A model generated the notes under the pieces. The model did no database searches and had not been told where the DNA came from. It saw only the letters and a program-made list of their open reading frames with translations. The position numbers were made by a program, and so were the translations under genes. This document shows positions 1-21,268 of a stretch of DNA of 64,000 nt, piece by piece. The stretch is from a virus: positions 105,659-169,658 of the IMG/VR virus record IMGVR_UViG_3300043411_001575; one strand, written 5' to 3'. Numbering within the stretch: the stretch's first letter is position 1; each line of letters begins with the position of its first letter.

Positions 1-35
1 AGTACAAAAGCCCACATTGCACAAAGCCGATGTTA
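1..35 (+). repeat. Partial attC-like site H0 (right arm only, cut by window edge)
   Basis: TGTTA at 31-35; GTTAGCCGCAGTA is complementary to TATTGCGGCTAAC at the end of cassette 1. Confidence 0.7.
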
Positions 36-766
36 GCCGCAGTACATTCTATCAGGGTGATTGTCTTGTGGAAATGGATAAGATTTCCGATAAAAGTGTG
101 GATATGATTTTATGTGATTTGCCTTATGGAACAACAGCTTGCAAATGGGATAGTGTCATTCCTTTTGAGCCACTTTGGAAGCAATATGAAAGGATTATAA
201 AAGATAACGGGGCAATAGTTTTGACAGCTTCGCAACCATTTACAACAATATTAATAAGCAGCAATATAAAGTTATTCAGGTATGAATTAATTTGGCAAAA
301 GGATAAGGCAAGTGGGTTTTTAAATGCTAATAAAATACCATTGAAAGCACACGAAAACGTTTTAGTATTTTACAAAAAGTTACCTACATATAATCCGCAA
401 AAAACCATTGGTGGGCTGCAAAGGAAAAGGACAAGGAAAAAACCAACGCATGAGGTTTTAGGTAAAACTGGTGTAAATGAAAAACACGTTATTTGGCAAG
501 ATAACACAAGATACCCTATAAGTGTTTTAGAATTTGATGTAGATACTATTAACCACAGTTTGCACCCTACTCAAAAACCAATAGCATTAATGGAATATTT
601 AATAAAAACCTACACCAACGAAGGAGAAACAGTTTTAGATAACTGTATGGGTTCAGGAACAACTGGTGTGGCTTGTAAAAAAACAGGTAGGCACTTTATC
701 GGAATAGAAAAGGATGAAAAGTATTTTGAAATTGCCGTTAGCAGGGTGTCTGCGTATTGCGGCTAA
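17..766 (+). CDS. N6-adenine/N4-cytosine DNA methyltransferase (beta class), cassette 1; true start probably upstream of window
   Basis: DLPY motif IV, HPTQKP, DNCMGSGTTG motif I; frame open to the window edge; stop codon is the TAA of TAAC. Confidence 0.92.
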   Translation: MHKADVSRSTFYQGDCLVEMDKISDKSVDMILCDLPYGTTACKWDSVIPFEPLWKQYERIIKDNGAIVLTASQPFTTILISSNIKLFRYELIWQKDKASGFLNANKIPLKAHENVLVFYKKLPTYNPQKTIGGLQRKRTRKKPTHEVLGKTGVNEKHVIWQDNTRYPISVLEFDVDTINHSLHPTQKPIALMEYLIKTYTNEGETVLDNCMGSGTTGVACKKTGRHFIGIEKDEKYFEIAVSRVSAYCG

Positions 767-878
767 CGTTTTGCAGATAGGCGTTGTTGCCTCACAAATG
801 ATTGATTGAAACACTAAATTTAATAATATGGGAAATGATAATTTAAAAACGGAAAGCAATAACGCCAATGTGCTGTTA
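764..878 (+). repeat. attC-like hairpin H1
   Basis: TAACG-tttt-GCAGATAGGCGTTGTTGC ... GCAATAACGCCAATGTGC-TGTTA. Confidence 0.85.
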
Positions 879-1169
879 GGTGCTGGGTTTGTTTACTTGG
901 TAGAATGTTCATCAGGAAGTTGGGATAGTTACCATTGGTGGGTTGGAGGAATATTTGAAAAGCAAGAAGATGCTGATAAATATGCACAAAGCTTGAATGA
1001 TGAAAACAAACGATTAAAAGAGGTTGAATGCTCAATAAAAACACCATTTGAAGATATGACTGATGAAGAAGAAACGGAGTATTACAGGTGGTGGAATGGT
1101 AACAATGATGCTATGGAATGGAATGGTGCTAAAGTTAAGCAGTACCCCATAAACAAACCTTGCACCTAA
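828..1169 (+). CDS. Hypothetical protein, cassette 2
   Basis: 113 aa ORF; ATG inside the H1 loop, stop in the next TAAC. Confidence 0.8.
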   Translation: MGNDNLKTESNNANVLLGAGFVYLVECSSGSWDSYHWWVGGIFEKQEDADKYAQSLNDENKRLKEVECSIKTPFEDMTDEEETEYYRWWNGNNDAMEWNGAKVKQYPINKPCT

Positions 1170-1254
1170 CGATTGGGTGTATGAGAAGGTTTGCTTAGAT
1201 GAACTTTTAAATTTACACAGAATTTTATAGCAAACTTTCTTATACACCTTGTTA
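1167..1254 (+). repeat. attC-like hairpin H2
   Basis: GGTGTATGAGAAGGTTTGCT / AGCAAACTTTCTTATACACC arms between TAACG and TGTTA. Confidence 0.85.
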
Positions 1255-1317
1255 TGTACAGGCACGGTAAATTACCGATGAACTTAATTAAATGAACGAA
1301 ACTAATAATTTTTAAAA

Positions 1318-2058
1318 ATGTGGGATGGCAAATATGCTTTTGAAAAAAGCAAAATAATACAAGGAGATAGTTTGGATAAAATAAAATATATACCTAATGG
1401 CAGTATTGACTTAATTGTAACTGACCCACCGTATAAAATGACGAAACAAGGTAATTCTTGCAGACCAAATTATATGAAAAGTGGAATGGGTGAAAACTTA
1501 TTTGATGGTGAATTACCAAATACAAAAGAATGGATGAAACTTTGTTTTGATAAACTAAAAGACGATGCCCATTTCTATGTATTTACCAATATAAATAGTT
1601 TGCACGAATACCTTGATGTTGCAAAAGAATGTGGATTTAAACTACATAATATTATAAGTATGATTAAAGATACCAAAATGCCTAATAGATGGTATTTAAA
1701 ATACACTGAATTTGTATTGTTTTTTAGAAAAGGTAAAGCGTTTCCAATAAACGATATGACAAGTAGAGATTATGAATTTGTTGAAACACCAACATTAAAA
1801 AATGGCAAAATACATATATCACAAAAACCATTGAATTTTATTGAAAAACTAATAACAAATTCATCAAATGAAGGTGAAATATGTTTGGATTTATTTAGTG
1901 GAAGCGGAACACTTGCAGAAGCCTGTATAAATACAAATAGAGATTTCATTATTATAGAGAAAAACCCAAATGACTTTGAAAAAGGCAAAGAAAGGGTGGG
2001 AAAAATTTTTAAAAATTATGGAATTAACATACAACCTTTAATCGAAGCACAAATGTAG
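1318..2058 (+). CDS. N6/N4 DNA methyltransferase, cassette 3
   Basis: TDPPY, HISQKP, DLFSGSGT motifs. Confidence 0.92.
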   Translation: MWDGKYAFEKSKIIQGDSLDKIKYIPNGSIDLIVTDPPYKMTKQGNSCRPNYMKSGMGENLFDGELPNTKEWMKLCFDKLKDDAHFYVFTNINSLHEYLDVAKECGFKLHNIISMIKDTKMPNRWYLKYTEFVLFFRKGKAFPINDMTSRDYEFVETPTLKNGKIHISQKPLNFIEKLITNSSNEGEICLDLFSGSGTLAEACINTNRDFIIIEKNPNDFEKGKERVGKIFKNYGINIQPLIEAQM

Positions 2059-2068
2059 TGCTTGTACA

Positions 2069-2155
2069 TAACGTTTTCGGGCTTGGCGAAGGTGGGCTTG
2101 TAGGATGCTCAATTTTAGCACAATGTGTCTGCCCACTTTTGCCAAACCCGTGTTA
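2069..2155 (+). repeat. attC-like hairpin H3
   Basis: CGGGCTTGGCGAAGGTGGGC / GCCCACTTTTGCCAAACCCG arms. Confidence 0.85.
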
Positions 2156-2252
2156 TATGAAGTGCCGACTTATTAAGCAGAATTTTAAATTGAAACTATA
2201 AACAGAAAAACAAAAAAGAAAAAAAGCGTAGGGAATTTTAAAAACAAACAAT

Positions 2253-2519
2253 ATGGAAAAGAATTTTATTGAAAAAGCAGAAAAAGAAATTGGTAGAAAA
2301 TTTGGTTTTTTCATCAGATGTGATGATAAAAACAAACCAACAGAAGTATTAACCGATATGTACTTTGAACTATGGGAAACAGAAAAGATGAACGAGATTT
2401 TATCTTTATGCGAAACACATAATCTTAAATACGATTTTGGTTTAGAAAGTTTTGATACCAAAATAGATGCTATTGAACAAGAAATATGTATTGTTTCAAC
2501 TAATTGCGAAAATTCATAA
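2253..2519 (+). CDS. Hypothetical protein, cassette 4 gene 1
   Basis: 88 aa ORF with A-rich leader; stop abuts the next ATG. Confidence 0.65.
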   Translation: MEKNFIEKAEKEIGRKFGFFIRCDDKNKPTEVLTDMYFELWETEKMNEILSLCETHNLKYDFGLESFDTKIDAIEQEICIVSTNCENS

Positions 2520-2520
2520 A

Positions 2521-3264
2521 ATGGAAGCAAATACGATTTACAAAGGCGATTGCTTTGAACTTATAAAGCAAATAACAAAAGCAGATAACGTCAAACTTAT
2601 TATTACAGACCCACCATATTTACATAATAAAGGAGGTGGGAAAACATCGGGAACAGAGGGTAAAAGTTCAATAGCTAATAGCCCTATGTATAAATTCGAT
2701 TCATTTATGATGGAAGATATGAGTTCTTTTTTAGAGGAAGATGTTTATAATCTATTAGATGAATATAAAAGAATAATGACAAAATTAAACTGCTTTATAT
2801 TTACTAATGACACTTTGATACCGTATTATACAATGTGGGCAGTTAAAAACAATAAAAAGTTTACAATTTTAACTTGGGAAAAACCATTGTCGATTTTAAA
2901 CAGAAATAGATTTAGTCAGAATTTAGAATATGTTGTGAGGATTTACGACAATGGAACTGCACTTAATTTAATAGATTTAGAAGCATATCCCGAAAAGAAA
3001 AACTACTACTCAAAAAACAGAAGGTTAAATTCGCCTACAAATAAGATACACCCAACCCAAAAACCATTAGAATATCTACTTGGATTGATTGAGTTAAATA
3101 CAAATGAAGGCGATTTAGTATTAGATACGTTTTTTGGTAGTGGACAAACAGGTAAGGCTTGTCAGATTTTAAATAGAAATTATATCGGTTTTGAAAGAGA
3201 AGAAAAGTATGTTGAATTATCAAATAAATATTTACAACAAGGATTTGAAAAAACACTATTTTAA
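2521..3264 (+). CDS. N6/N4 DNA methyltransferase, cassette 4 gene 2
   Basis: TDPPY, HPTQKP, DTFFGSGQTG; start MEANTIY chosen at 2521 (ORF track starts at 2467). Confidence 0.9.
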   Translation: MEANTIYKGDCFELIKQITKADNVKLIITDPPYLHNKGGGKTSGTEGKSSIANSPMYKFDSFMMEDMSSFLEEDVYNLLDEYKRIMTKLNCFIFTNDTLIPYYTMWAVKNNKKFTILTWEKPLSILNRNRFSQNLEYVVRIYDNGTALNLIDLEAYPEKKNYYSKNRRLNSPTNKIHPTQKPLEYLLGLIELNTNEGDLVLDTFFGSGQTGKACQILNRNYIGFEREEKYVELSNKYLQQGFEKTLF

Positions 3265-3339
3265 AAGTGTGGTGGCTTTTTTCTTTTTGTTTTTCATTAA
3301 CGGAACTTCAATTGGAAACGGTCAGCAAGGCATTTCATA

Positions 3340-3459
3340 TAACGTTCGAGGGCTTGGCGAAGTGGCTGAACCTGAAGCTAAATAGAATTACTAAACTTAA
3401 AAATTAAGAACGAATGATTGATATAATTACTGAACAGCCATTTTGCCAAACCCGTGTTA
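3340..3459 (+). repeat. attC-like hairpin H4
   Basis: GGGCTTGGCGAAGTGGCTG / CAGCCATTTTGCCAAACCC arms; near-identical to H5, with the same arms as H12. Confidence 0.85.
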
Positions 3460-4223
3460 GTGGCAGTACTTTTGTGAATGCTGATTGCTTTGATGTTTTT
3501 CCTTTTATCGAGGATAAATCAATTGATGCTATTATTTGCGATTTGCCCTATGGAACAACTCAATGTAAATGGGATAGCATTATTAATTTAGATTTGATGT
3601 GGACGCAATACAACAGAATAATAAAAGATAACGGCATTTTTATATTATTTGCAGATGAGCCTTTTACAAGCATATTAATAAATAGTAACATTAAAAATTT
3701 TAAGCAAAGAATAACTTGGGATAAACAAATAGCAGGAGGTCATTTAAACGCTAAAAAAATGCTATTGAAAAGAACTGAGGATATATGCTTATTTTCAAAT
3801 GTTAAAAATGGAAAATATACATACAATCCTATTTTAAAAGATAAGGATTTTAAAAACATAAGAGATAGAAACGGAGAAAACAGAAAAGAGTTTAAAGGCG
3901 GTTATGTAGGGAAACACAATAGTACGTTGAGTAAAGAGCATAACAATAAAAAAAGTTACCCAGATAATTTAATTTCCTTTTCAGCAAGAAAAGGCGATTG
4001 TAACCCTATAAATAGATTACACCCAACACAAAAACCACTTGAATTGATGGAATATCTTATAAAAACCTATACTAATGAGGGCGATTTGGTTTTAGATAAC
4101 ACAATGGGTTCTGGAACAACAATTTTAGCTGCTATAAAAAATAATAGAATTGGTATAGGAATTGAAAAGGAAAAACAATATTATGATGTCGCTGTTCGTA
4201 GGGCTTCGGAGTATTGCCACTAA
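3414..4223 (+). CDS. N6/N4 DNA methyltransferase, cassette 5
   Basis: DLPY, HPTQKP, DNTMGSGTT; ATG in H4 loop. Confidence 0.92.
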   Translation: MIDIITEQPFCQTRVSGSTFVNADCFDVFPFIEDKSIDAIICDLPYGTTQCKWDSIINLDLMWTQYNRIIKDNGIFILFADEPFTSILINSNIKNFKQRITWDKQIAGGHLNAKKMLLKRTEDICLFSNVKNGKYTYNPILKDKDFKNIRDRNGENRKEFKGGYVGKHNSTLSKEHNNKKSYPDNLISFSARKGDCNPINRLHPTQKPLELMEYLIKTYTNEGDLVLDNTMGSGTTILAAIKNNRIGIGIEKEKQYYDVAVRRASEYCH

Positions 4224-4340
4224 CGTTATCGGGCTTGGCGAAGTGGCTGAACCCGAAGCTAAATAGAATTACTAAACTTAAAAATTAAAAACGAATGTCA
4301 AATAGAATTACAGAACAGCCATTTTGCCAAACCAGTGTTA
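4221..4340 (+). repeat. attC-like hairpin H5
   Basis: Same arm family as H4. Confidence 0.85.
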
Positions 4341-5053
4341 GTGGCAGTACTTTTGTAAATGCTGATTGCTTTGATGTTTTTCCTTTTATTGAGGACAAAT
4401 CAATTGATGCTATTATTTGCGATTTGCCTTATGGAACTACTGCTTGTAAGTGGGATACAATTATACCATTTGAGCCGCTATGGGAGCAGTACAAGCGAGT
4501 GATTAAACCTAATGGTGCGATAGTGCTGTTTAGCAAAGAGCCATTTACGTGCATATTGAGAACAAGTGAAATTAAAATTTTTAAGCAACCTCTTATTTGG
4601 GATAAGGTTAATTCAGATAACCCTATGCAGGCAAAAAGAAGACATCTAAACACTACGGAGGATATTTCTATCTTTTACAAATCTCAATGTACTTATAACC
4701 CACAAGGTCTTATAAAGTCAAATATAAAAAAGGGAGGGAAGCAAGGGATAATGATTGATAGTAGTGGTAAGGAAAAAGAACAATATATTCAAGAGAATAC
4801 CAATTATCCGAAAAATATATTAGTGTACCCGATAGAAAGAAAGGCGGTTCATCCAACTCAAAAACCCGAAGCACTCCTGCAATACTTAGTCAAAACCTAC
4901 ACTAACGAAGGCGATATAGTCTTAGATAACTGTATGGGTTCAGGTACAACAAATCTTGCTTGTTTAAAATTAAATCGCAAATCAATTGGAATAGAAAAGG
5001 AAAAACAATATTACGATGTCGCTGTTCGTAGGGCTTCTGAGTATTGCCACTAA
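4295..5053 (+). CDS. N6/N4 DNA methyltransferase, cassette 6 (paralog of cassette 5)
   Basis: DLPY, HPTQKP, DNCMGSGTT; ATG in H5 loop; ends near-identical to cassette 5. Confidence 0.92.
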   Translation: MSNRITEQPFCQTSVSGSTFVNADCFDVFPFIEDKSIDAIICDLPYGTTACKWDTIIPFEPLWEQYKRVIKPNGAIVLFSKEPFTCILRTSEIKIFKQPLIWDKVNSDNPMQAKRRHLNTTEDISIFYKSQCTYNPQGLIKSNIKKGGKQGIMIDSSGKEKEQYIQENTNYPKNILVYPIERKAVHPTQKPEALLQYLVKTYTNEGDIVLDNCMGSGTTNLACLKLNRKSIGIEKEKQYYDVAVRRASEYCH

Positions 5054-5107
5054 CGGTATCCGTATAAGGGAAGTGCGAGGAACGAGCATTTACTTTATAC
5101 GGTGTTA
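5051..5107 (+). repeat. attC-like hairpin H6 (shortest, 57 bp)
   Basis: CCGTATAAGGGAAGTGC / GCATTTACTTTATACGG arms. Confidence 0.85.
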
Positions 5108-5198
5108 GCAAAGTGCGTTGGGATTGTGTGTCGGCTCGTTCCAAAACCATTTATTTTCTTTTTTTTGGGGAGGTTTTGAAAACTTTTTTACTAAAATA

Positions 5199-5229
5199 CT
5201 TGCTAAATGACAATTTATATTTATCTTTG
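5199..5229 (+). promoter_or_regulatory. Bacteroidota sigma70-type promoter inside cassette 7
   Basis: TTG at 5200-5202, 19 nt spacer, TATCTTTG at 5222-5229 (TAnnTTTG -7 consensus). Confidence 0.65.
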
Positions 5230-5260
5230 AACCATATTAATAATCTAAAAACAAAACAAA

Positions 5261-5572
5261 ATGATTTACAAAAAAACACACTATGATAAAAAGGCTTTAA
5301 ACAGCCACGTTTCAAAAATAAAAGATGCAGGAGGAAATGCAATAGTAGATGGATTATCGGTTAGATATTTCTATCCATCCAATACCATTGGTGAAATTAG
5401 ATTAAAGCATAAGAGTTGGAAGAAAACAGAAAGACAAGAAGTTTTGTTTATTGTTTTAGTTTCTGAAAAAGATAAAACGCCATACTATTCAGCAATGTAT
5501 TTCCCGAAATGGGTTGAAATAGGAGGTGTTTATGGAAACAAAAATGACATAACAATAATCGAAAAGTTTTAA
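5261..5572 (+). CDS. Hypothetical protein, cassette 7 gene 1
   Basis: 103 aa ORF downstream of the promoter, A-rich leader. Confidence 0.75.
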   Translation: MIYKKTHYDKKALNSHVSKIKDAGGNAIVDGLSVRYFYPSNTIGEIRLKHKSWKKTERQEVLFIVLVSEKDKTPYYSAMYFPKWVEIGGVYGNKNDITIIEKF

Positions 5573-5574
5573 CT

Positions 5575-5730
5575 ATGAAACTGTCTGTAACAGAATATGC
5601 AAAACAGCTTGGCGTAACTCGTCAAGCCGTTTTGTTACAAATTAAAGAAAAAAGGTTGCCTAAAAATGTGAAGGTTGAAAAAATCGGAAATACTTATTCT
5701 TTAACTGTGGGTGGGCAAAAAAGAAAATAA
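5575..5730 (+). CDS. Small helix-turn-helix DNA-binding protein (excisionase/MerR-like), cassette 7 gene 2
   Basis: Read by hand, absent from the ORF track: MKLSVTEYAKQLGVTRQAVLLQIKEKRLPKNVKVEKIGNTYSLTVGGQKRK (51 aa). Confidence 0.7.
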   Translation: MKLSVTEYAKQLGVTRQAVLLQIKEKRLPKNVKVEKIGNTYSLTVGGQKRK

Positions 5731-5749
5731 ATGGTTTTGGAATGTTTGC

Positions 5750-5839
5750 TAACGTATGGTGCTATGAGCAGGTTTGCCTTGCAGAAATGTTCAAATTTAG
5801 CACTAATGTTATTGGCAAACTTGCTTATAGCACGTGTTA
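5750..5839 (+). repeat. attC-like hairpin H7
   Basis: GTGCTATGAGCAGGTTTGCC / GGCAAACTTGCTTATAGCAC arms. Confidence 0.85.
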
Positions 5840-5875
5840 GCGGTAGTTTATTTTTCAAAAATTAAAATTAAAAAT

Positions 5876-6334
5876 ATGGGAACACAAGTAGTAGGAGAAA
5901 GTAACAGCGTTGAGTATAGCACTCCGTTGAAAATAGTACAGCCATTGATAAACGAATTTGGCTTAACAAGAGATGTTTGTGCAAGTGAATTAAACCACAA
6001 ACTACCCGATTATTGGACAAAAGAAGATAATTCACTTGCTATGAATTGGAAAGGTAATTGTTGGATGAACCCACCATTTAGCAGAGATTTGAATAAGTGG
6101 GTAAAGAAAGCGTGTAATGATGCTGAAAGGTTTGGAGGAACGAAAGTTTGTTTAATACCTGTAAGAAGCAATACAAAATGGTGGGCGGAAGTTTGTGTAA
6201 AAGCAGAAATTCGTTTTATCAATGGCGAAGTAAATTTTAATGATGAAGAACGTGGACTTTGGTTGCCGATGTGTATTATCATTTTCGGTGAGAAGGCAAA
6301 GGTTGGCACGTTCTCTGTCTTAAATTACCGCTAA
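5876..6334 (+). CDS. Phage-type DNA N6-adenine methyltransferase (Dam family), cassette 8
   Basis: STP, DVCAS, WMNPPF, LIPVRSNTKWW, IRFINGEVNF motifs; start at MGTQ. Confidence 0.88.
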   Translation: MGTQVVGESNSVEYSTPLKIVQPLINEFGLTRDVCASELNHKLPDYWTKEDNSLAMNWKGNCWMNPPFSRDLNKWVKKACNDAERFGGTKVCLIPVRSNTKWWAEVCVKAEIRFINGEVNFNDEERGLWLPMCIIIFGEKAKVGTFSVLNYR

Positions 6335-6404
6335 CGTTTTGCAGCTAACAGAAGGCGGCTTTTTAGCAAACTTAGTACTTGCCGCTTTTTGTTAGCTGCT
6401 GTTA
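6332..6404 (+). repeat. attC-like hairpin H8
   Basis: GCAGCTAACAGAAGGCGGC / GCCGCTTTTTGTTAGCTGC arms. Confidence 0.85.
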
Positions 6405-6462
6405 GTGGACTGTTAAATTATTAAAAAAGAAAAAAGGAGGGGTGCGAGGGCATCTAAACATA

Positions 6463-7299
6463 ATGGACAAGAAGAAACTTTTAATTGCTTTTAGTGGTGG
6501 AGAAACATCTGCATTTATGGCTCAATGGTTATGGAAACATAAACAAGGTGAATACGAAATGTTATTTGCTTTTGCTAATACTGGGGTTGAGAATGAAGAA
6601 ACTTTAAACTTTGTGCATAAATGCGAAGTTGAATTTGGTATAAATGTTAATTGGTTGGAAGCAGTAATAGACCAAGAGAAAGGGAAAGGCACAAGGCATA
6701 AGATTGTTGATTACAAAACAGCAAGTAGAAACGGACAACCATTTGAGGAACTGATAAAGAAATACGGTTTACCAAACCAACAGCGATTTCACTGCACAAG
6801 GGAGTTAAAAAATAATACATTGATTTCATTTGCAAAAAGTATTTGGGGAAAGGAAAAGTATTATTTAGCAATAGGAATTAGAGTAGATGAATTTGATAGG
6901 ATGAATGATAAATTTAAAGAGTTGAGAATTGTTTATCCGTTAATTTCAGAAATTCCAATGACAAAGCCAAAGATTAATTTTTGGTGGAAACAACAACCGT
7001 TTAGATTAGAATTAAAAGGTTATCAAGGGAATTGTGTTACTTGCTACAAAAAAAGTGATAAAAAATTGTTTCAGATAGCTAAAGAAAATCCAAGTGCATT
7101 TGATTTCTTTGATAGAATGGAAGAACAATATGGAGAAGGTAAGTATCAATTTTTTAGGCAGAACCGAACAGCTAAACAAATTATGGAACAAGCTAAAGAA
7201 TGGAATGGCAATGTAACCGATGACGCACAAAATGTTACAATACAAACAGATTTATTTAGCGAAAGTTGTGAAGCATTTACAAGCGATTGCGGTGTTTAA
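6463..7299 (+). CDS. PAPS-reductase-like / adenine nucleotide alpha-hydrolase family protein, cassette 9
   Basis: FSGGETS PP-loop, FANTGxE, CTRELK, IGIRxDE, YPL, GNCxxC motifs. Confidence 0.85.
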   Translation: MDKKKLLIAFSGGETSAFMAQWLWKHKQGEYEMLFAFANTGVENEETLNFVHKCEVEFGINVNWLEAVIDQEKGKGTRHKIVDYKTASRNGQPFEELIKKYGLPNQQRFHCTRELKNNTLISFAKSIWGKEKYYLAIGIRVDEFDRMNDKFKELRIVYPLISEIPMTKPKINFWWKQQPFRLELKGYQGNCVTCYKKSDKKLFQIAKENPSAFDFFDRMEEQYGEGKYQFFRQNRTAKQIMEQAKEWNGNVTDDAQNVTIQTDLFSESCEAFTSDCGV

Positions 7300-7368
7300 C
7301 CTTTTCACAGTTTTGAAAAAACTGAAAGAGTGCGTGGGCTTTTTCTTTTTTAATAATTTAATTGCCAC

Positions 7369-7494
7369 TAACGGTTCGCAGGTATATTTAGTTGCGGACT
7401 TAGTAACACAAAACTTTAAATTTAGAAGAAATGAAGAAAGAAGAACAAAACTCGAATGAACCACAAAAACCGCAATTGAATATACCTGCTGTTA
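7369..7494 (+). repeat. attC-like hairpin H9
   Basis: GCAGGTATATTTAGTTGCGG / CCGCAATTGAATATACCTGC arms. Confidence 0.85.
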
Positions 7495-7787
7495 GTTGCA
7501 GTGTTGTTCATTGCAAGAAAGCACCTTATGATGTTTATATTGGAAGACCAAGCAAATGGGGTAATCCATTCACACACATAAAAGACGGTAAAACACTTGC
7601 AAAACATATTGTAGGTAGTAGAGATGAAGCAGTCGAAGCATATCTTGAATGGATTACCAACGGAGAAGGTAAACATTTGATGAGTGATTTACACGAATTG
7701 AAAGATAAGGTGCTTGGTTGTTGGTGTCATCCACAATCTTGTCACGGAGATGTACTTTCGGAGTTGGTTGCTAAACATTGCAACTAA
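7431..7787 (+). CDS. DUF4326-like protein, cassette 10
   Basis: VYIGRPSKWGNPF and LGCWCHPQSCHGDVL motifs; ATG in H9 loop. Confidence 0.85.
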   Translation: MKKEEQNSNEPQKPQLNIPAVSCSVVHCKKAPYDVYIGRPSKWGNPFTHIKDGKTLAKHIVGSRDEAVEAYLEWITNGEGKHLMSDLHELKDKVLGCWCHPQSCHGDVLSELVAKHCN

Positions 7788-7909
7788 CGTTTTGCAGGTA
7801 TATTTAGTGCCGAATTTAAAAACGAAAAATATGAATTTTATACAAAAGTTATTTAAAAGCAGAAAGGTTAATGAACCGATGAACTCGGCATTGAATATAC
7901 CTGTTGTTA
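7785..7909 (+). repeat. attC-like hairpin H10
   Basis: GCAGGTATATTTAGTGCCGA / TCGGCATTGAATATACCTGT arms. Confidence 0.85.
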
Positions 7910-8133
7910 TACCTCGTTTATCTTCTGATTGGATAAAATTTGAGGATGAAAAACCACCACACGAAGTAGTATTAGCTGCTTGCGATACTTATGATTGTGG
8001 ATGGACTATGGATACTGTTTGGTGGTATGAAGATAAGCAATGTTGGATGGTTACTGGTGCAGTTAAAAGTACAGAAGCACATTTACCATACACACATTGG
8101 CGTAAATTACCACCATTTCCAAATGAGGTATAA
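7831..8133 (+). CDS. DUF551-like phage protein, cassette 11
   Basis: WIKFEDEKP...THWRKLPPFP pattern; ATG at 7831 in H10 loop. Confidence 0.7.
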   Translation: MNFIQKLFKSRKVNEPMNSALNIPVVIPRLSSDWIKFEDEKPPHEVVLAACDTYDCGWTMDTVWWYEDKQCWMVTGAVKSTEAHLPYTHWRKLPPFPNEV

Positions 8134-8256
8134 CGTATTGGTGCTATACGAAGGAGGCGATTATTAGCACTAAATTTGATGCGGAGTACAAATGTTTGTT
8201 TAACCACAAATGTTTCTGCGGAGTACCAAACCGCCTCTTTTGTATAGCACGTGTTA
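8131..8256 (+). repeat. attC-like hairpin H11
   Basis: GTGCTATACGAAGGAGGCG / CGCCTCTTTTGTATAGCAC arms; TGCGGAGTAC occurs twice in the loop. Confidence 0.85.
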
Positions 8257-8320
8257 TACGCTGGCACGGTTGATTAAACGAGAAACTTAAATTGAAACAC
8301 AAAACAAAATTTTTATTAAA

Positions 8321-9106
8321 ATGAGCGAGGGCAAAAAAGAAATATTATTAGGAGATTGTTTGGAACTTATGAAGGATATACCAAACGGAAGTATTGATAT
8401 GATACTTTGTGATTTACCATACGGAACAACTGCTTGTAAATGGGATAGTGTAATACCTTTTGAACCACTTTGGAAAGAATATGAAAGGATTATAAAGACC
8501 AATGGTGCTATTTTATTGTTTGGAACACAACCATTCACAACAGAACTAATATTGAGCAATAGAAAATTGTTTAAGTATGATATGGTTTGGTGCAAAGACA
8601 AACCTGCTGACTTCGGAAATGGCAATATAAAACCATTAAGATACCACGAAACAATTTGTGTATTTTATACCAAAACGCCAACATACAATAAGCAATTTGA
8701 AAGCAGAAAAGGAACTGGCTATTCAAGGGCTAAATATCCTGTAAATTACATAAACAATTCAGAGCATAAATTTGGAATGAAAGATGGTTCTTTTGATTAT
8801 GCAAATAAAGACAGAATGATTGGAACTGTAATAGATATTACAACTGGTGCAAGAGGTAGCATAAAACACCCAACAGTAAAGCCCGTTCCTTTATTTGAAC
8901 ATTTAATCAAAACATATACCAACGAAGGTGAATTGGTTTTAGATAATACAGCAGGAAGCGGAACAACTGCAATTGCTTGTTTGAATACTAAAAGGCAATT
9001 TATAGTAATGGAAAAAGAACAAAAGTATTACGATATGATTTTAAAAAGGGTGGGAGATTTTAATAAAAATTTTGAACCGCAAACTCTCTTTGGAAACGAA
9101 ATGTAG
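8321..9106 (+). CDS. N6/N4 DNA methyltransferase, cassette 12
   Basis: DLPY, HPTVKP, DNTAGSGTT. Confidence 0.92.
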   Translation: MSEGKKEILLGDCLELMKDIPNGSIDMILCDLPYGTTACKWDSVIPFEPLWKEYERIIKTNGAILLFGTQPFTTELILSNRKLFKYDMVWCKDKPADFGNGNIKPLRYHETICVFYTKTPTYNKQFESRKGTGYSRAKYPVNYINNSEHKFGMKDGSFDYANKDRMIGTVIDITTGARGSIKHPTVKPVPLFEHLIKTYTNEGELVLDNTAGSGTTAIACLNTKRQFIVMEKEQKYYDMILKRVGDFNKNFEPQTLFGNEM

Positions 9107-9116
9107 TGCTTGCGTA

Positions 9117-9236
9117 TAACGGTATCGGGCTTGGCGAAGTGGCTGAACCGAATGTTTGATAGAAGCACAAAACTTAATAATTAAAAACGAATGATTGATA
9201 GAATTACTGAACAGCCATTTTGCCAAACCCGTGTTA
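9117..9236 (+). repeat. attC-like hairpin H12
   Basis: Same arm family as H4/H5. Confidence 0.85.
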
Positions 9237-9985
9237 TGTGCAGGGCGGTTGATAACCTTGAACTCCTTTTGTCGCAACCTGATGAAAGTGTAGATTTGAT
9301 TTACTGTGATATTCTTTATGGAACGGGTAGGAATTTCGGTGATTACCAAGACTTAAAACCAATTAGAAGCGAAATAGAAAGCCACTACCTACCAAGACTT
9401 ATTGAAATGAAACGAGTTTTAAAAAGTACAGGTAGTATTTATTTGCAAATGGATACACGAATAAACCATTGGATGCGCATTTTGATGGATGATGTTTTTG
9501 GGTATGAAAATTTCCGCAATGAAATAGTATTTGGATATAATGGGGGTGGTGTTTCAAAGAATTGTTATCCTAAAAAACACGACATAATCTTGTTTTATTC
9601 TGTTAGTGATAAATACTATTTTAATAACGAAAAGAAACCATACTCCGCTTTAAGTTCACAAAACTTATTGTGGAAACATAGGAATAAAAAAAGACTTGAT
9701 GAACTTAATGATGGCACACCTGTAACCGATGTATGGACTGATTTGAAGTTTAAAATAAATTACCAAGAGGAAGAATATACAGGATATGCTACCCAAAAAA
9801 CAAAAGAATTATTGAGCCGTATTGTTTTAGCTTCCACAAATGAAGGCGATACAGTTGCAGATTATTATTTAGGTAGTGGCACAACGGCAGTAGTTTGTAA
9901 GGAACTGAACCGAAATTTTATAGGTTGCGATATTAATCCAAAAGCTATTGAAATAACAAATGCTCGTTTAGATGCACTTTCGTAG
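9191..9985 (+). CDS. N6/N4 DNA methyltransferase (Mod-like), cassette 13
   Basis: YCDILY (variant motif IV), FRNEI, YATQK, DYYLGSGTT; ATG in H12 loop. Confidence 0.88.
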   Translation: MIDRITEQPFCQTRVMCRAVDNLELLLSQPDESVDLIYCDILYGTGRNFGDYQDLKPIRSEIESHYLPRLIEMKRVLKSTGSIYLQMDTRINHWMRILMDDVFGYENFRNEIVFGYNGGGVSKNCYPKKHDIILFYSVSDKYYFNNEKKPYSALSSQNLLWKHRNKKRLDELNDGTPVTDVWTDLKFKINYQEEEYTGYATQKTKELLSRIVLASTNEGDTVADYYLGSGTTAVVCKELNRNFIGCDINPKAIEITNARLDALS

Positions 9986-10044
9986 CTTTGCACATAACGT
10001 GTATTTAATGGAATGGAGTGTCAAAATCAATTAGTTACATAATA
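9985..10044 (+). other. Putative attI-equivalent primary recombination site
   Basis: Last TAACG (9995-9999) is not followed by a hairpin and lies directly 5' of the recombinase. Confidence 0.55.
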
Positions 10045-10914
10045 ATGGAAGATAAAATTAACAAATTAAGGAGGGAGTTATCCATAAGGAAATATGCTCC
10101 TAATACAGTTGAAACATATTGTTCATGTCTTAAAGTTATTTTTAGTAAATGTGGAATTAATCCAAGTATTGATTCTTTAAAGTCATATTTATTAACTATT
10201 GAAAATAGAAACTACCATAAACAAATAGTCGCTACATTCAGAAACTACTCTGAATTTGTATTAGGTATTAAATTATCTTTAAACGATGTTCCTTATCCTA
10301 GAAAACAAGAAAGTTTGCCTGAAATATATTCAGTTGAAGAGGTTTCTAAATTAATTAATATTCCTAAAAATTTAAAACATCAATCTATAATTTTTTTATT
10401 GTATGGATGTGGACTTAGAGTTAGTGAATTAATTAATTTAAAATTAACTGATATAGATAGTGATAGAATGGTTGTTAACATCCGAAAAGCAAAAGGAAAT
10501 AAGGACAGGCAAATAATGTTGGATGAATCTTTACTTAAATTACTTCGTGATTATTACACTGAATATAAACCAATAAATTATTTATTCAATGGTCAAAAAA
10601 AAGACCAATATAGTGACAGGTCTGTAAATGAACTTCTTAAATATTGGTCTAAAAAAGCAGGTATAAAAAAACATATTCATGCTCATTTATTAAGGCATTC
10701 ATTCGCTACCCATCTTTTAGATGCAGGAATAGACATGGCTATAATTCAAAAGTTATTAGGTCATTCAAACATAAAAACAACGCAAATTTATGCAAAAATT
10801 TCAACCAAATTAATATCTCAAATTAAATCTCCATTATCAAACATTAAAATCAATTCAAATGAAAAATCTAGTAATATTATTCCTTTGTGGAATTCTGATA
10901 GGTTTCCAAACTAA
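10045..10914 (+). CDS. Tyrosine recombinase (XerD/integron-integrase-like, without the IntI I2 insertion)
   Basis: YGCGLRVSE (R), KGNKDR (K), HLLRHSFATH (HxxR), LGHSNIKTTQIY (H, Y); N-terminal SAM-like domain; ORF track starts at GTG 10018. Confidence 0.93.
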   Translation: MEDKINKLRRELSIRKYAPNTVETYCSCLKVIFSKCGINPSIDSLKSYLLTIENRNYHKQIVATFRNYSEFVLGIKLSLNDVPYPRKQESLPEIYSVEEVSKLINIPKNLKHQSIIFLLYGCGLRVSELINLKLTDIDSDRMVVNIRKAKGNKDRQIMLDESLLKLLRDYYTEYKPINYLFNGQKKDQYSDRSVNELLKYWSKKAGIKKHIHAHLLRHSFATHLLDAGIDMAIIQKLLGHSNIKTTQIYAKISTKLISQIKSPLSNIKINSNEKSSNIIPLWNSDRFPN

Positions 10915-20098: not shown

Positions 20099-21268
20099 AT
20101 GTTAACCTATAAAAGAAAACTAAAAATAACTAAGGCTCAGGAGGAAAGAATTTCTTCATGGATTGGTGCGTGTCGTTTGGTTTACAATATGGGCTTAGAA
20201 ATTAAAAAAGAAACGTGGAAAAATAAACAGCAAAATGTTTCTGCTTATGATTTATCGAAACAACTTCCCTCAATAAAAGACGTAGAATGGGTAGCTGATG
20301 TTCCTGCTCAATGCCTTCAGAATTCATTGGAACGACTTGATAGGTCATATAAAAACTTCTTCCGTAATTTTAAATCAGGAGGCGGATTTCCAAAATTTAA
20401 ATCAAAAAGAGATTATAAGTCTATGTTGTTTAAACAAGGTGATTTAAATGCAAAGACACCTTTAATAACTCTTAGTAAAAACAAAATAAAACTTCCTAAG
20501 CTTGGTGAGGTATCATTTTTCAAAGATAAATCACCGATTATAGGTAAAATAAAAACAGTAACAATAAAGATAGAACCAACAGGATTTTTCTTGTACATTG
20601 TCTGTGACGGAGTTAGTAAAAGCATCTCAAACCCTGACGAAAGCCAAGTCATAGGGATTGACATGGGAGTAGCTAACTTCTGTTCAGACAGCAACGGAAA
20701 CTTCATCGAAAACCCAAGACACTTCAATAAATATGAAGATAGGCTTCGTATTGAAAATAGGAGTTTAGCTAGAAAAAAAAGAGGAAGTAACCGTTGGAAA
20801 AAACAAGCGAAAAAGCTATCACTTTTGCATCACAAAATATCTAATATTAGGAAGGATTTTTTGCATAAAGAATCCACCAAAATGGCTAAAAATTTCCATA
20901 CTATTTATTTGGAAGATTTGAATATTTCGAATATGTCGAAACGTCCAAAACCAAAGCAGGATGAGAATGGTAAGTTTATTCTAAATGGTTCTTCTGCAAA
21001 ATCAGGATTAAACAAATCAATCCTAGATGCAGGTTGGGGAATGTTTAGGGATATGCTCGAATACAAAACAAATGTAGTTCGAGTAGACCCAAAATACACC
21101 TCTCAAAAGTGCAACGAATGTGGCGAAAAAGATTCAAAGAATAGGTTATCACAAAGCGAATTTGTTTGTTTAAGCTGCGGTCACATCAGTCATGCTGATA
21201 CAAATGCAGCGAAAAATATTTTGAGCAAGGGCATTGCTCTCAATCGTGAACGTAAGGCACTAGTCTAA
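20099..21268 (+). CDS. tnpB: RNA-guided endonuclease TnpB (IS200/IS605 family, no tnpA)
   Basis: N-terminal HTH (YKRKLK...GACRLVYN), GFPKFK, RuvC-I GIDMG, RuvC-II LEDL, zinc finger CNECG/CLSCG, RuvC-III HADTNAAKNI. Confidence 0.93.
   Translation: MLTYKRKLKITKAQEERISSWIGACRLVYNMGLEIKKETWKNKQQNVSAYDLSKQLPSIKDVEWVADVPAQCLQNSLERLDRSYKNFFRNFKSGGGFPKFKSKRDYKSMLFKQGDLNAKTPLITLSKNKIKLPKLGEVSFFKDKSPIIGKIKTVTIKIEPTGFFLYIVCDGVSKSISNPDESQVIGIDMGVANFCSDSNGNFIENPRHFNKYEDRLRIENRSLARKKRGSNRWKKQAKKLSLLHHKISNIRKDFLHKESTKMAKNFHTIYLEDLNISNMSKRPKPKQDENGKFILNGSSAKSGLNKSILDAGWGMFRDMLEYKTNVVRVDPKYTSQKCNECGEKDSKNRLSQSEFVCLSCGHISHADTNAAKNILSKGIALNRERKALV

Follow-up and report, generated by a model that had tools for sequence, protein, structure and literature searches.

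The last 64 kb of a 169,658-bp viral record with a G+C content of 30.7% (IMG/VR record IMGVR_UViG_3300043411_001575, positions 105,659 to 169,658) were analysed here; this stretch of 64,000 nucleotides is called the window. It contains the right end of an array of about 40 hairpin sites, which are all located on the plus strand and extend from genome position 77,358 to 115,653 (window position 9998), and next to this end lies the gene of a Xer-like tyrosine recombinase. The array covers 38 kb, or about 22% of the record, and its last 12 complete sites fall in the window. Between the hairpins are gene cassettes, and those in the window code for DNA methyltransferases of the N6/N4 and Dam types, a PAPS-reductase-like protein, a DUF4326 protein and unknown proteins. 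Long runs of small open reading frames (ORFs) are found in the window, and the PHROG matches include a tail fibre protein. A first-pass annotation, made from the letters of the window alone, had read conserved G·T wobble pairs in these hairpins as a sign that the sense strand is the folded one. Based on a comparison of the array with related loci in other phages, we suggest that the hairpins are the recombination sites of an integron-like cassette system run by the recombinase, in which it is probably the coding strand that folds and is exchanged.

Architecture and conservation of the hairpin sites

The 40 sites of the record share one plan. TAAC is followed by G, by three to four unpaired bases on the left arm and by a stem of about 20 bp, and after a loop of about 10–80 nt the returning stem ends in T followed by GTTA (40 of 40 sites). 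The arms were aligned with a strand-symmetric scoring, in which G·T and A·C are treated alike and neither strand is favoured. In all 12 window sites a G·T pair lies 15 nt before GTTA, with the T facing a G of the left arm, as the first-pass annotation had noticed when pairing the arms by hand, and the same holds for 38 of the 40 sites genome-wide; the remaining two have the pair at position 16 owing to a 1-nt insertion. The other regularities that it had described were also recovered. TAACG faces TGTTA in 12 of 12 window sites, and the bulge of 3–4 nt is on the left arm in 34 of 37 in-array sites, while a surplus on the right arm occurs in none. The cassette-end repeats (GTTA plus flank ... 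complementary flank plus TAAC) pair over about 15 bp, and at their position 11 a T (before TAAC) faces a G (after GTTA) in 11 of the 12 window cassettes with pairing ends and in 28 of 34 cassettes genome-wide. In 29 of the 40 sites, position 10 or 12 holds a further G·T pair. As had been claimed, wobbles outnumber mismatches on the plus strand (108 G·T/T·G versus 15 A·C/C·A), and base composition does not explain this excess, because the purine skew of the coding strand predicts a ratio of about 1.1.

A gapped, score-based detector of the sites was dropped, since in this AT-rich DNA it gave 27 false matches outside the array at the score that gave 41 inside. It was replaced by an ungapped detector that considers Watson-Crick pairs only, with 37 matches inside the array and 3 outside. 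The pattern of wobbles and bulge is confirmed as real, and is caused neither by chance nor by base composition. In addition, a covariance model (R1) run on the window returned exactly the 12 complete sites plus one weak minus-strand echo of the site at 1167.

Then, are these sites peculiar to one genome? With the left arm of one hairpin family used as a pattern, matches were found in more than 116 IMG/VR contigs, and cassettes with the same sites are present in isolated Flavobacterium phages, for example mumin6-1. The Watson-Crick-only detector, which is strand-symmetric, identified 327 sites in 1 Mb of loci, 291 of which have exactly 3 or 4 surplus bases on one arm. When 249 unique sites were oriented by the surplus arm alone, 237 of them had a G·T pair at position 1 and 181 had one at position 15. 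The same tendency appears in a strand-symmetric scan of 35 clusters of arm sequences: all of them have G·T at position 1 and 29 have it at position 15, while in 3 others it is displaced by a single base. The stem stops sharply past position 21.

The first-pass annotation had called for a covariation analysis on many sites, and such an analysis bears out the folding. Fourteen sites of this genome were used to build a covariance model; it gave 288 matches, from which an alignment of 137 distinct sequences was obtained. Paired cells make up 96.3% of this alignment, compared with 71.8% after shuffling and 36–47% when the partners were slid, and compensatory changes occur in 18 of the 20 stem pairs. 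Of the 137 distinct sites, 136 have G·T at positions 1 and 15; at position 15 there is no G-C, a single U-A and never T·G. It should be noted that this alignment was fitted to the model, which is why the model-free counts are given alongside.

The loops carry features of their own. In 6 of the 12 window hairpins the next ORF has its start codon inside the loop, the loops of otherwise unlike hairpins have a common motif ...ACTTAAAATTTAGCACAAATGTT... (for example at window 5785–5815 and 8170–8185; alignment A1, columns 31–69), and some loops contain TAnnTTTG, which resembles the −7 promoter element of Bacteroidota.

Cassette unit and the junction at the recombinase gene

To which gene does a hairpin belong, the one before it or the one after it? 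The flanks were compared for all pairs among 313 oriented sites. Pairs with only the upstream flank in common never share the hairpin (0 of 49), even at 95–100% upstream identity, while pairs with only the downstream flank in common share it in 83 of 149 cases, and sequence identity breaks off exactly after TAACG. Insertion polymorphisms are of the same kind. Three nearly identical contigs (L064, L060 and L088) have zero, one and two hairpin-first cassettes, respectively, at one TAAC. The empty site of L064 reads ...GCCAC-TAAC-TACTCG..., the unit at that TAAC in L060 consists of G, hairpin, GTTA, a small ORF and TAAC, and in L088 there is a second unit of this kind. A similar polymorphism is seen in another lineage (L074/L090), with a unit of 1,062 nt that is bounded by TAAC on both sides, and no GTTA-bounded indel was found among the related-contig comparisons. 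Given the downstream linkage and the TAAC-bounded insertions, the cassette is therefore a hairpin followed by its gene, opened within TAAC, a unit that also fits the start codons held in six window loops. Both this unit and its junctions, like the architecture of the sites and its conservation, are seen directly in the comparison of sequences, and the hairpin-first layout so deduced is the reverse of that of integrons.

Another kind of insertion was observed between close relatives. The pairs L040/L072, L002/L003 and L039/L097 differ by insertions of small genes without hairpins, whose junctions are located at or beside start codons and show microhomology (e.g., ATGGAA), which suggests a second, different route of gene gain.

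At its right end the array stops at a TAAC (9995–9998), located 46 nt before the start codon of the recombinase, and no hairpin follows this last TAAC. Three related contigs (L001–L003) encode 76–79% identical recombinases, and their cassettes before the TAAC differ. Up to TAAC the sequence varies among the four genomes; the next 45 nt or so are conserved, and the recombinase start codon comes after them. The array is thus variable where it meets the integrase gene, and a conserved stretch adjoins the 5' end of that gene, as for an attI site. As duplex DNA the junction reads TTTGCACATAA|CGTGTA|TTTAATGGAAT, and in each of the four genomes a 6-bp centre is flanked by two inverted 11-bp arms that fit ATTnnnnnWAA. 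The R arm is the end of the last cassette, and the L arm, whose reverse complement is ATTCCATTAAA here, has the reverse complement ATTC(C/T)(A/G)TTAAA in the four genomes at 6-bp spacing. Read from the sequence, this arrangement would correspond to a dif-type core, in which two inverted arms of about 11 bp lie 6–8 bp apart.

The recombinase, the sole tyrosine recombinase in the 170-kb record, falls in the Xer clade. It matches NF040815 (XerA_Arch) with 206 bits against a cut-off of 220, XerD with 171 and XerC with 164, and its nearest solved structure is 4a8e, an XerC-like/XerA protein (E = 3e-44). The integron-integrase model TIGR02249 gives 155 bits against a cut-off of 265, in two pieces (profile 78–192 and 239–314), and the IntI-specific insertion, which falls in the gap between them, is missing. 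An arm-bound tyrosine recombinase cuts whichever strand carries that arm 5' of the centre. With the junction at TAA|C and the conserved part on its 3' side, it would therefore be the plus strand that is exchanged.

The integrases of the Polaribacter phages Freya and Leef (31–37% identity) were considered as members of the system and set aside, since no such hairpin arrays lie upstream of them. In both phages a sequence of the form ATTnnnnnTAA|C is located upstream of the recombinase start codon (Freya_10, L127, about 4060–4095; Leef_1, L128, about 6060–6090), and in Freya it forms a near-perfect inverted repeat, ATTGTTGCTAA-CACCCCT-ATAACAACAAT. The record lengths of Freya isolates are up to 4.9 kb apart, and the integrase start moves from 50 to 4147.

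Table 1. Positions in the window of the hairpin sites, the attI-like site and the recombinase gene
Feature	Position	Strand	Remarks
3' end of hairpin site	1–35	+	site starts 89 nt before the window (genome 105569–105693); GTTA 32–35, then first window cassette
Hairpin site 1	764–878	+	G·T pair at T860 (15 nt before GTTA); loop with ATG 828 of downstream ORF
Hairpin site 2	1167–1254	+	G·T pair at T1236
Hairpin site 3	2069–2155	+	G·T pair at T2137; extra G·T at position 12, C·A at position 6
Hairpin site 4	3340–3459	+	G·T pair at T3441; loop with ATG 3414 of downstream methyltransferase
Hairpin site 5	4221–4340	+	G·T pair at T4322; loop with ATG 4295
Hairpin site 6, short form	5051–5107	+	G·T pair at T5089; heads multi-gene cassette with non-coding leader
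Hairpin site 7	5750–5839	+	G·T pair at T5821
Hairpin site 8	6332–6404	+	G·T pair at T6386
Hairpin site 9	7369–7494	+	G·T pair at T7476; loop with ATG 7431
Hairpin site 10	7785–7909	+	G·T pair at T7891; loop with in-frame ATG 7831
Hairpin site 11	8131–8256	+	G·T pair at T8238
Hairpin site 12	9117–9236	+	G·T pair at T9218; loop with ATG 9191 of last methyltransferase cassette
Putative attI-like, dif-like double-stranded site	9987–10014	+	R arm TTTGCACATAA 9987–9997; centre CGTGTA 9998–10003; L arm TTTAATGGAAT 10004–10014
Xer-like tyrosine recombinase	10045–10914	+	289 aa

Half-sites, strand choice and other explanations

The base frequencies of 235 unique sites reveal two half-sites. The outer one, read on the 5' strand toward the cut, is A12 (66%), T11 (92%), T10 (63%), five variable bases and T4 A3 A2 | C. 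The inner one, on positions 16 to 6 of the right arm, is A16 (65%), T15 (98%), T14 (89%), five variable bases, W8, A7 (100%) and A6 (52%). In each of them the conserved T faces G (G11 82%, G15 94%), while the same T of the attI-like L arm is in an ordinary pair with A. The centre between the half-sites has exactly six bases on the 3' strand, and the 5' strand adds the 3–4 bulged bases. Folded plus-strand hairpins would consequently offer an 11+6+11 layout on the 3' strand, as in the attI-like site. In the duplex the inner motif is 9–10 bp from the cut, and hence only folding with the bulge gives the attI-like spacing of 6 nt. In the commonest family there is a C·A mismatch at position 6, with the A on the right arm, where it completes the AA before the virtual cut.

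These features suggest the following mechanism. The phage would carry an integron-like cassette system in which a Xer-type tyrosine recombinase uses the hairpins as its recombination sites. The plus (coding) strand would fold and be exchanged, and the cassette, hairpin first and gene second, would be opened in the 5' arm of its hairpin, at 5'-TAA|C-3'. Once folded, the plus strand of a free cassette could rebuild a dif-like core, composed of an outer 11-bp half-site 5'-ATTnnnnnTAA|C made from the two complementary cassette ends, a 6-nt centre on the 3' strand with 3–4 bulged bases on the 5' strand, and an inner 11-bp half-site 5'-ATTnnnnnWAA. Both half-sites would read ATT when the plus strand folds. 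Folding of the minus strand would instead give ACT with A·C mismatches, and the bulge would move to the opposite strand. The exchanged centre would include the G·T pair beside the crossover (TAAC-G over T-GTTA). In a palindrome, a Watson-Crick pair gives both strands one and the same half-site, and therefore only non-Watson-Crick pairs can make the strands differ; this distinction may explain why the pair at position 15 does not become G-C or A-T. The symmetry of the half-sites is thus a sharper form of the wobble code proposed in the first-pass annotation. We infer from these comparisons that the recombinase is the protein that binds the hairpins, that its substrate is single-stranded and that the wobbles decide the choice of strand.

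The annotation had concluded from the wobbles that the sense strand is the functional folded one. The conclusion survives and the argument does not, because a G·T pair on the plus strand equals an A·C mismatch on the minus strand, which could be used like an extrahelical base, so that wobbles alone cannot settle the strand. What points to the coding strand as the recombined one, which it probably is, is comparative evidence beyond the wobbles, namely the downstream linkage, the insertion polymorphisms and the attI-like junction. Folding of both strands, which had been proposed as a check, agrees with it: the plus strand is the more stable one in 38 of the 40 sites of this genome and in 237 of 289 sites overall (218 of 289 with RNA parameters). 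It is plausible that wobbles and bulge replace extrahelical bases as strand selectors. The further point of the annotation, that mRNA could fold in the same way, is a trivial consequence of the strand.

Some of these data would also be expected if the hairpins were mainly RNA elements, acting in mRNA leaders, processing or stability and also carrying promoters and start codons, with the G·U bias arising from selection at the RNA level. The cassettes would then be reshuffled by homologous recombination or template switching at the conserved hairpins, a route proposed for the PeSL motifs of T4-type phages, instead of by a site-specific recombinase that picks one strand. The bulge arm places the sites on the coding strand in 222 cases versus 12, in half of the window hairpins the following ORF starts within the loop, the plus strand is favoured with RNA parameters too, the loops have conserved motifs in common, and complete array-bearing phages exist without a recombinase. 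However, the two halves of the outer stem with its T·G at position 11 are about 1 kb apart in the transcript and are joined only in an excised cassette. Besides, the fixed polarity at position 15 (G on the 5' arm), with no G-C and one U-A, fits recognition by a protein better than mere tolerance of wobbles, the breakpoints are exactly at TAAC(G) and not anywhere in the shared hairpin, and in four genomes the array adjoins a recombinase gene via a dif-like site. We regard a mainly RNA-based origin of the pattern as unlikely.

Improbable, too, is the recombination of the antisense (minus) strand as in classical integrons, with the fixed A·C mismatches and a 3–4 nt bulge on the 3' arm acting like extrahelical bases. 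Under this reading the cassettes should begin with the gene and be bounded by G|TTA, the last of them should be followed by a complete hairpin, and the attI should lie at the far (left) end; but the units are hairpin-first, the empty sites have TAAC without GTTA, no hairpin follows the last TAAC, the conserved site and the recombinase are at the right end, and the upstream gene-hairpin linkage is 0 of 49. On its side are the occurrence of GTTA breakpoints, the folding of the minus strand (mean −13.8 kcal/mol) and the geometry of the bottom strand of classical attC, with extra bases on the 3' arm and cleavage on the 5' arm, which matches the minus strand here (PMC2727003). Finally, the recombinase might read duplex DNA, the arms being ordinary inverted protein-binding repeats and the G/T asymmetry only telling the left from the right binding site. 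The attI-like site is evidently used as a duplex, and the left arm has an L-arm-like motif, (C)TTnnnnnAGT. That motif, however, lies 9–10 bp from the cleavage point, compared with 6 bp in the attI-like site, and only bulging of the 3–4 extra bases restores the spacing; moreover, the arms vary freely yet stay complementary, with compensatory changes in 18 of 20 pairs, which argues for intrastrand pairing and leaves a pure duplex reading very improbable.

Several observations weigh against exchange of the folded coding strand by the Xer-type enzyme. The hairpins are unrelated in 58 of the 149 downstream-sharing pairs and GTTA breakpoints occur, so the link between hairpin and gene is not absolute; rarer exchange at the GTTA core, or homologous recombination, must also take place. 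The complete array-bearing phages mumin6-1 and a 35.6-kb record with terminal repeats contain no tyrosine recombinase, and the hairpins there are consequently either moved in trans or kept for another reason. In lineages without an integrase, the terminal TAAC sites have no recognisable L arm. Both strands fold, and the mean gain of the plus strand is small (1.7–2.2 kcal/mol). A role in RNA likely coexists and could add to the G·U bias. In addition, the set of sites is enriched for one hairpin family, since the loci were fetched by the pattern of that family. Nor are the sites a simple mirror image of attC: the extra bases of attC are opposite the cleaved arm, while here they would be on the cleaved arm. 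The only assayed site of this type, P12002L_attC1 from Polaribacter phage P12002L, gave no verified recombinants, with the non-cognate IntI1 as the enzyme (PMC9892861); it was recognised as such a site by the published primer sequences, the threshold scan having missed this short site. With these points taken into account, we still hold it rather likely that this is an integron-like system of phages, run by a Xer-type enzyme, whose plus strand is folded and exchanged.

Surroundings of the array and related systems

The G+C content of the array is 0.31–0.35 (genome 80,000–115,000), compared with mostly 0.28–0.31 in other parts of the record, and the higher value fits cassettes drawn from a shared foreign pool. 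The coding strand of the record has a purine skew, and GC skew tracks transcription; it was dropped as a guide to the direction of replication, for which it is uninformative. A megablast comparison of the structural gene region with isolated phages gave no match. At the left end of the array (genome 77,300–77,361, 28.3 kb before the window) there is only a weak hairpin of −6.3 kcal/mol, GGCAC-TAAT...TGCAAAACCGAT-GTTA-TAAGCC, with TAAT replacing TAAC, which may be a decayed first site. The 389-aa protein flanking this end has no relatives in the viral collection, and the left end is therefore not comparable across genomes.

Some cassettes contain more than one gene (window 5051–5750; genome 80092–81095, 83626–84240, 88687–89372 and 94117–94915). 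They open with a short hairpin of 57–65 nt and a non-coding leader of about 150 nt, GTTA(G/T)CAA(A/G)TG...GGCTCGTT..., and close with a small helix-turn-helix-like ORF (window 5575–5730), which has seven copies in the array. Downstream of the recombinase, a 389-aa TnpB-like protein with OrfB_IS605, Cas12f-like TNB and helix-turn-helix domains is encoded on the plus strand at window 20099–21268 (PHROG 506, E = 6e-108). No TnpA gene lies beside this gene, which is 10 kb away, and no Y1 transposase was found across the record. Single-strand transposition of the IS200/IS605 type, in which a Y1 HUH transposase acts on subterminal hairpins, was consequently rejected as an explanation of the array, there being no PF01797 match in the 170-kb record.

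How does the system compare with known ones? A survey of phage genomes reported clusters of attC sites lacking integrases (CALINs) in virulent phages, one of them with two methyltransferases in phage P12002L (PMC9892861). No other paper in our literature search described the system, and none dealt with its link to the recombinase, the hairpin-first unit, the strand or the wobble positions. As in integrons and CALINs, promoter-poor single-gene cassettes are arrayed here in one orientation. As in integrons, the sites are imperfect palindromes with AAC/GTT cores, covarying stems and variable loops, the cassette ends complete an outer stem, a tyrosine recombinase lies beside a double-stranded insertion site at one end of the array, and asymmetric unpaired features could choose the strand. 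Compared with the attC consensus, which has RYYYAAC and GTTRRRY cores, the TAAC/GTTA cores and covarying stems are present and GTTRRRY is partly kept, T following GTTA in 57% of the sites. However, the phage recombinase is without the IntI insertion, the hairpin precedes the gene with the crossover at TAA|C on the coding strand, the genes point toward the recombinase, and the 3–4 nt bulge next to the core and the fixed G·T pairs take the place of single extrahelical bases. Besides, the carriers of the system are phages of Flavobacteriia-type hosts, and its cassettes mainly encode DNA methyltransferases. An integron proper, in the sense of IntegronFinder, was rejected on both the integrase (no IntI domain) and the cassette layout (83 of 149 downstream versus 0 of 49 upstream). 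In classical attC it is the bottom strand that recombines; its 3' arm has the extra bases and its 5' arm is cleaved (PMC2727003).

With Xer/dif and the attP site of phage CTX the system has in common an enzyme of the Xer family and two inverted arms of about 11 bp around a 6-bp centre. In 2005, Val et al. reportedly found that the folded single-stranded attP of CTX phage is integrated by XerCD. There too, the hairpin of one specific strand rebuilds a duplex core, with an imperfect centre that suits exchange of one strand pair. Unlike Xer/dif, a single phage-encoded recombinase stands here in place of XerC plus XerD, the sites are many and vary freely in sequence, and what is moved would be gene cassettes, rather than chromosome dimers being resolved or whole genomes integrated.

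Among phages, the nearest analogues in function are the promoter/stem-loop (PeSL) motifs of T4-type phages, which are conserved in sequence and are thought to act through homology (PMC2839356, PMC4122927). They are likewise stem-loops that recur in the hypervariable regions of large phages, where they border small accessory genes, provide signals for expression and show where genes are swapped. In contrast, the arms covary in the present sites, cores and cassette-specific end repeats set the exact junctions, and a recombinase with a cognate double-stranded site ends the array.

Strand choice, which keeps integron cassettes oriented, is to our knowledge known so far in one form, that of extrahelical bases read by an IntI-specific domain. 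The phage system seems to solve the problem otherwise, with a simpler Xer-type enzyme, the opposite strand and the chemistry of wobble versus mismatch. We see roughly even chances that it represents a widespread mirror-image integron of phages, in which a plain Xer-type enzyme captures hairpin-first cassettes through exchange of the coding strand and the strand is chosen by two symmetric T·G wobbles, one in each half-site, together with a bulged centre, in place of extrahelical bases; a dif-like core would then be rebuilt by a single strand of the palindrome. The role of the wobbles in strand selection is a well-defined hypothesis. Testable designs of sites follow from the rules found here: a junction at TAA|C, half-sites of the form ATTnnnnnWAA, a T·G pair in each of them (outer position 11, inner position 15) and a bulge of 3–4 nt. 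The system could also serve as a natural comparison for how folded single-stranded sites evolve from dif-like duplex sites. It is common in phages of Flavobacteriia-type hosts and, stocking DNA methyltransferases and other small genes, probably shapes the escape of these phages from restriction.

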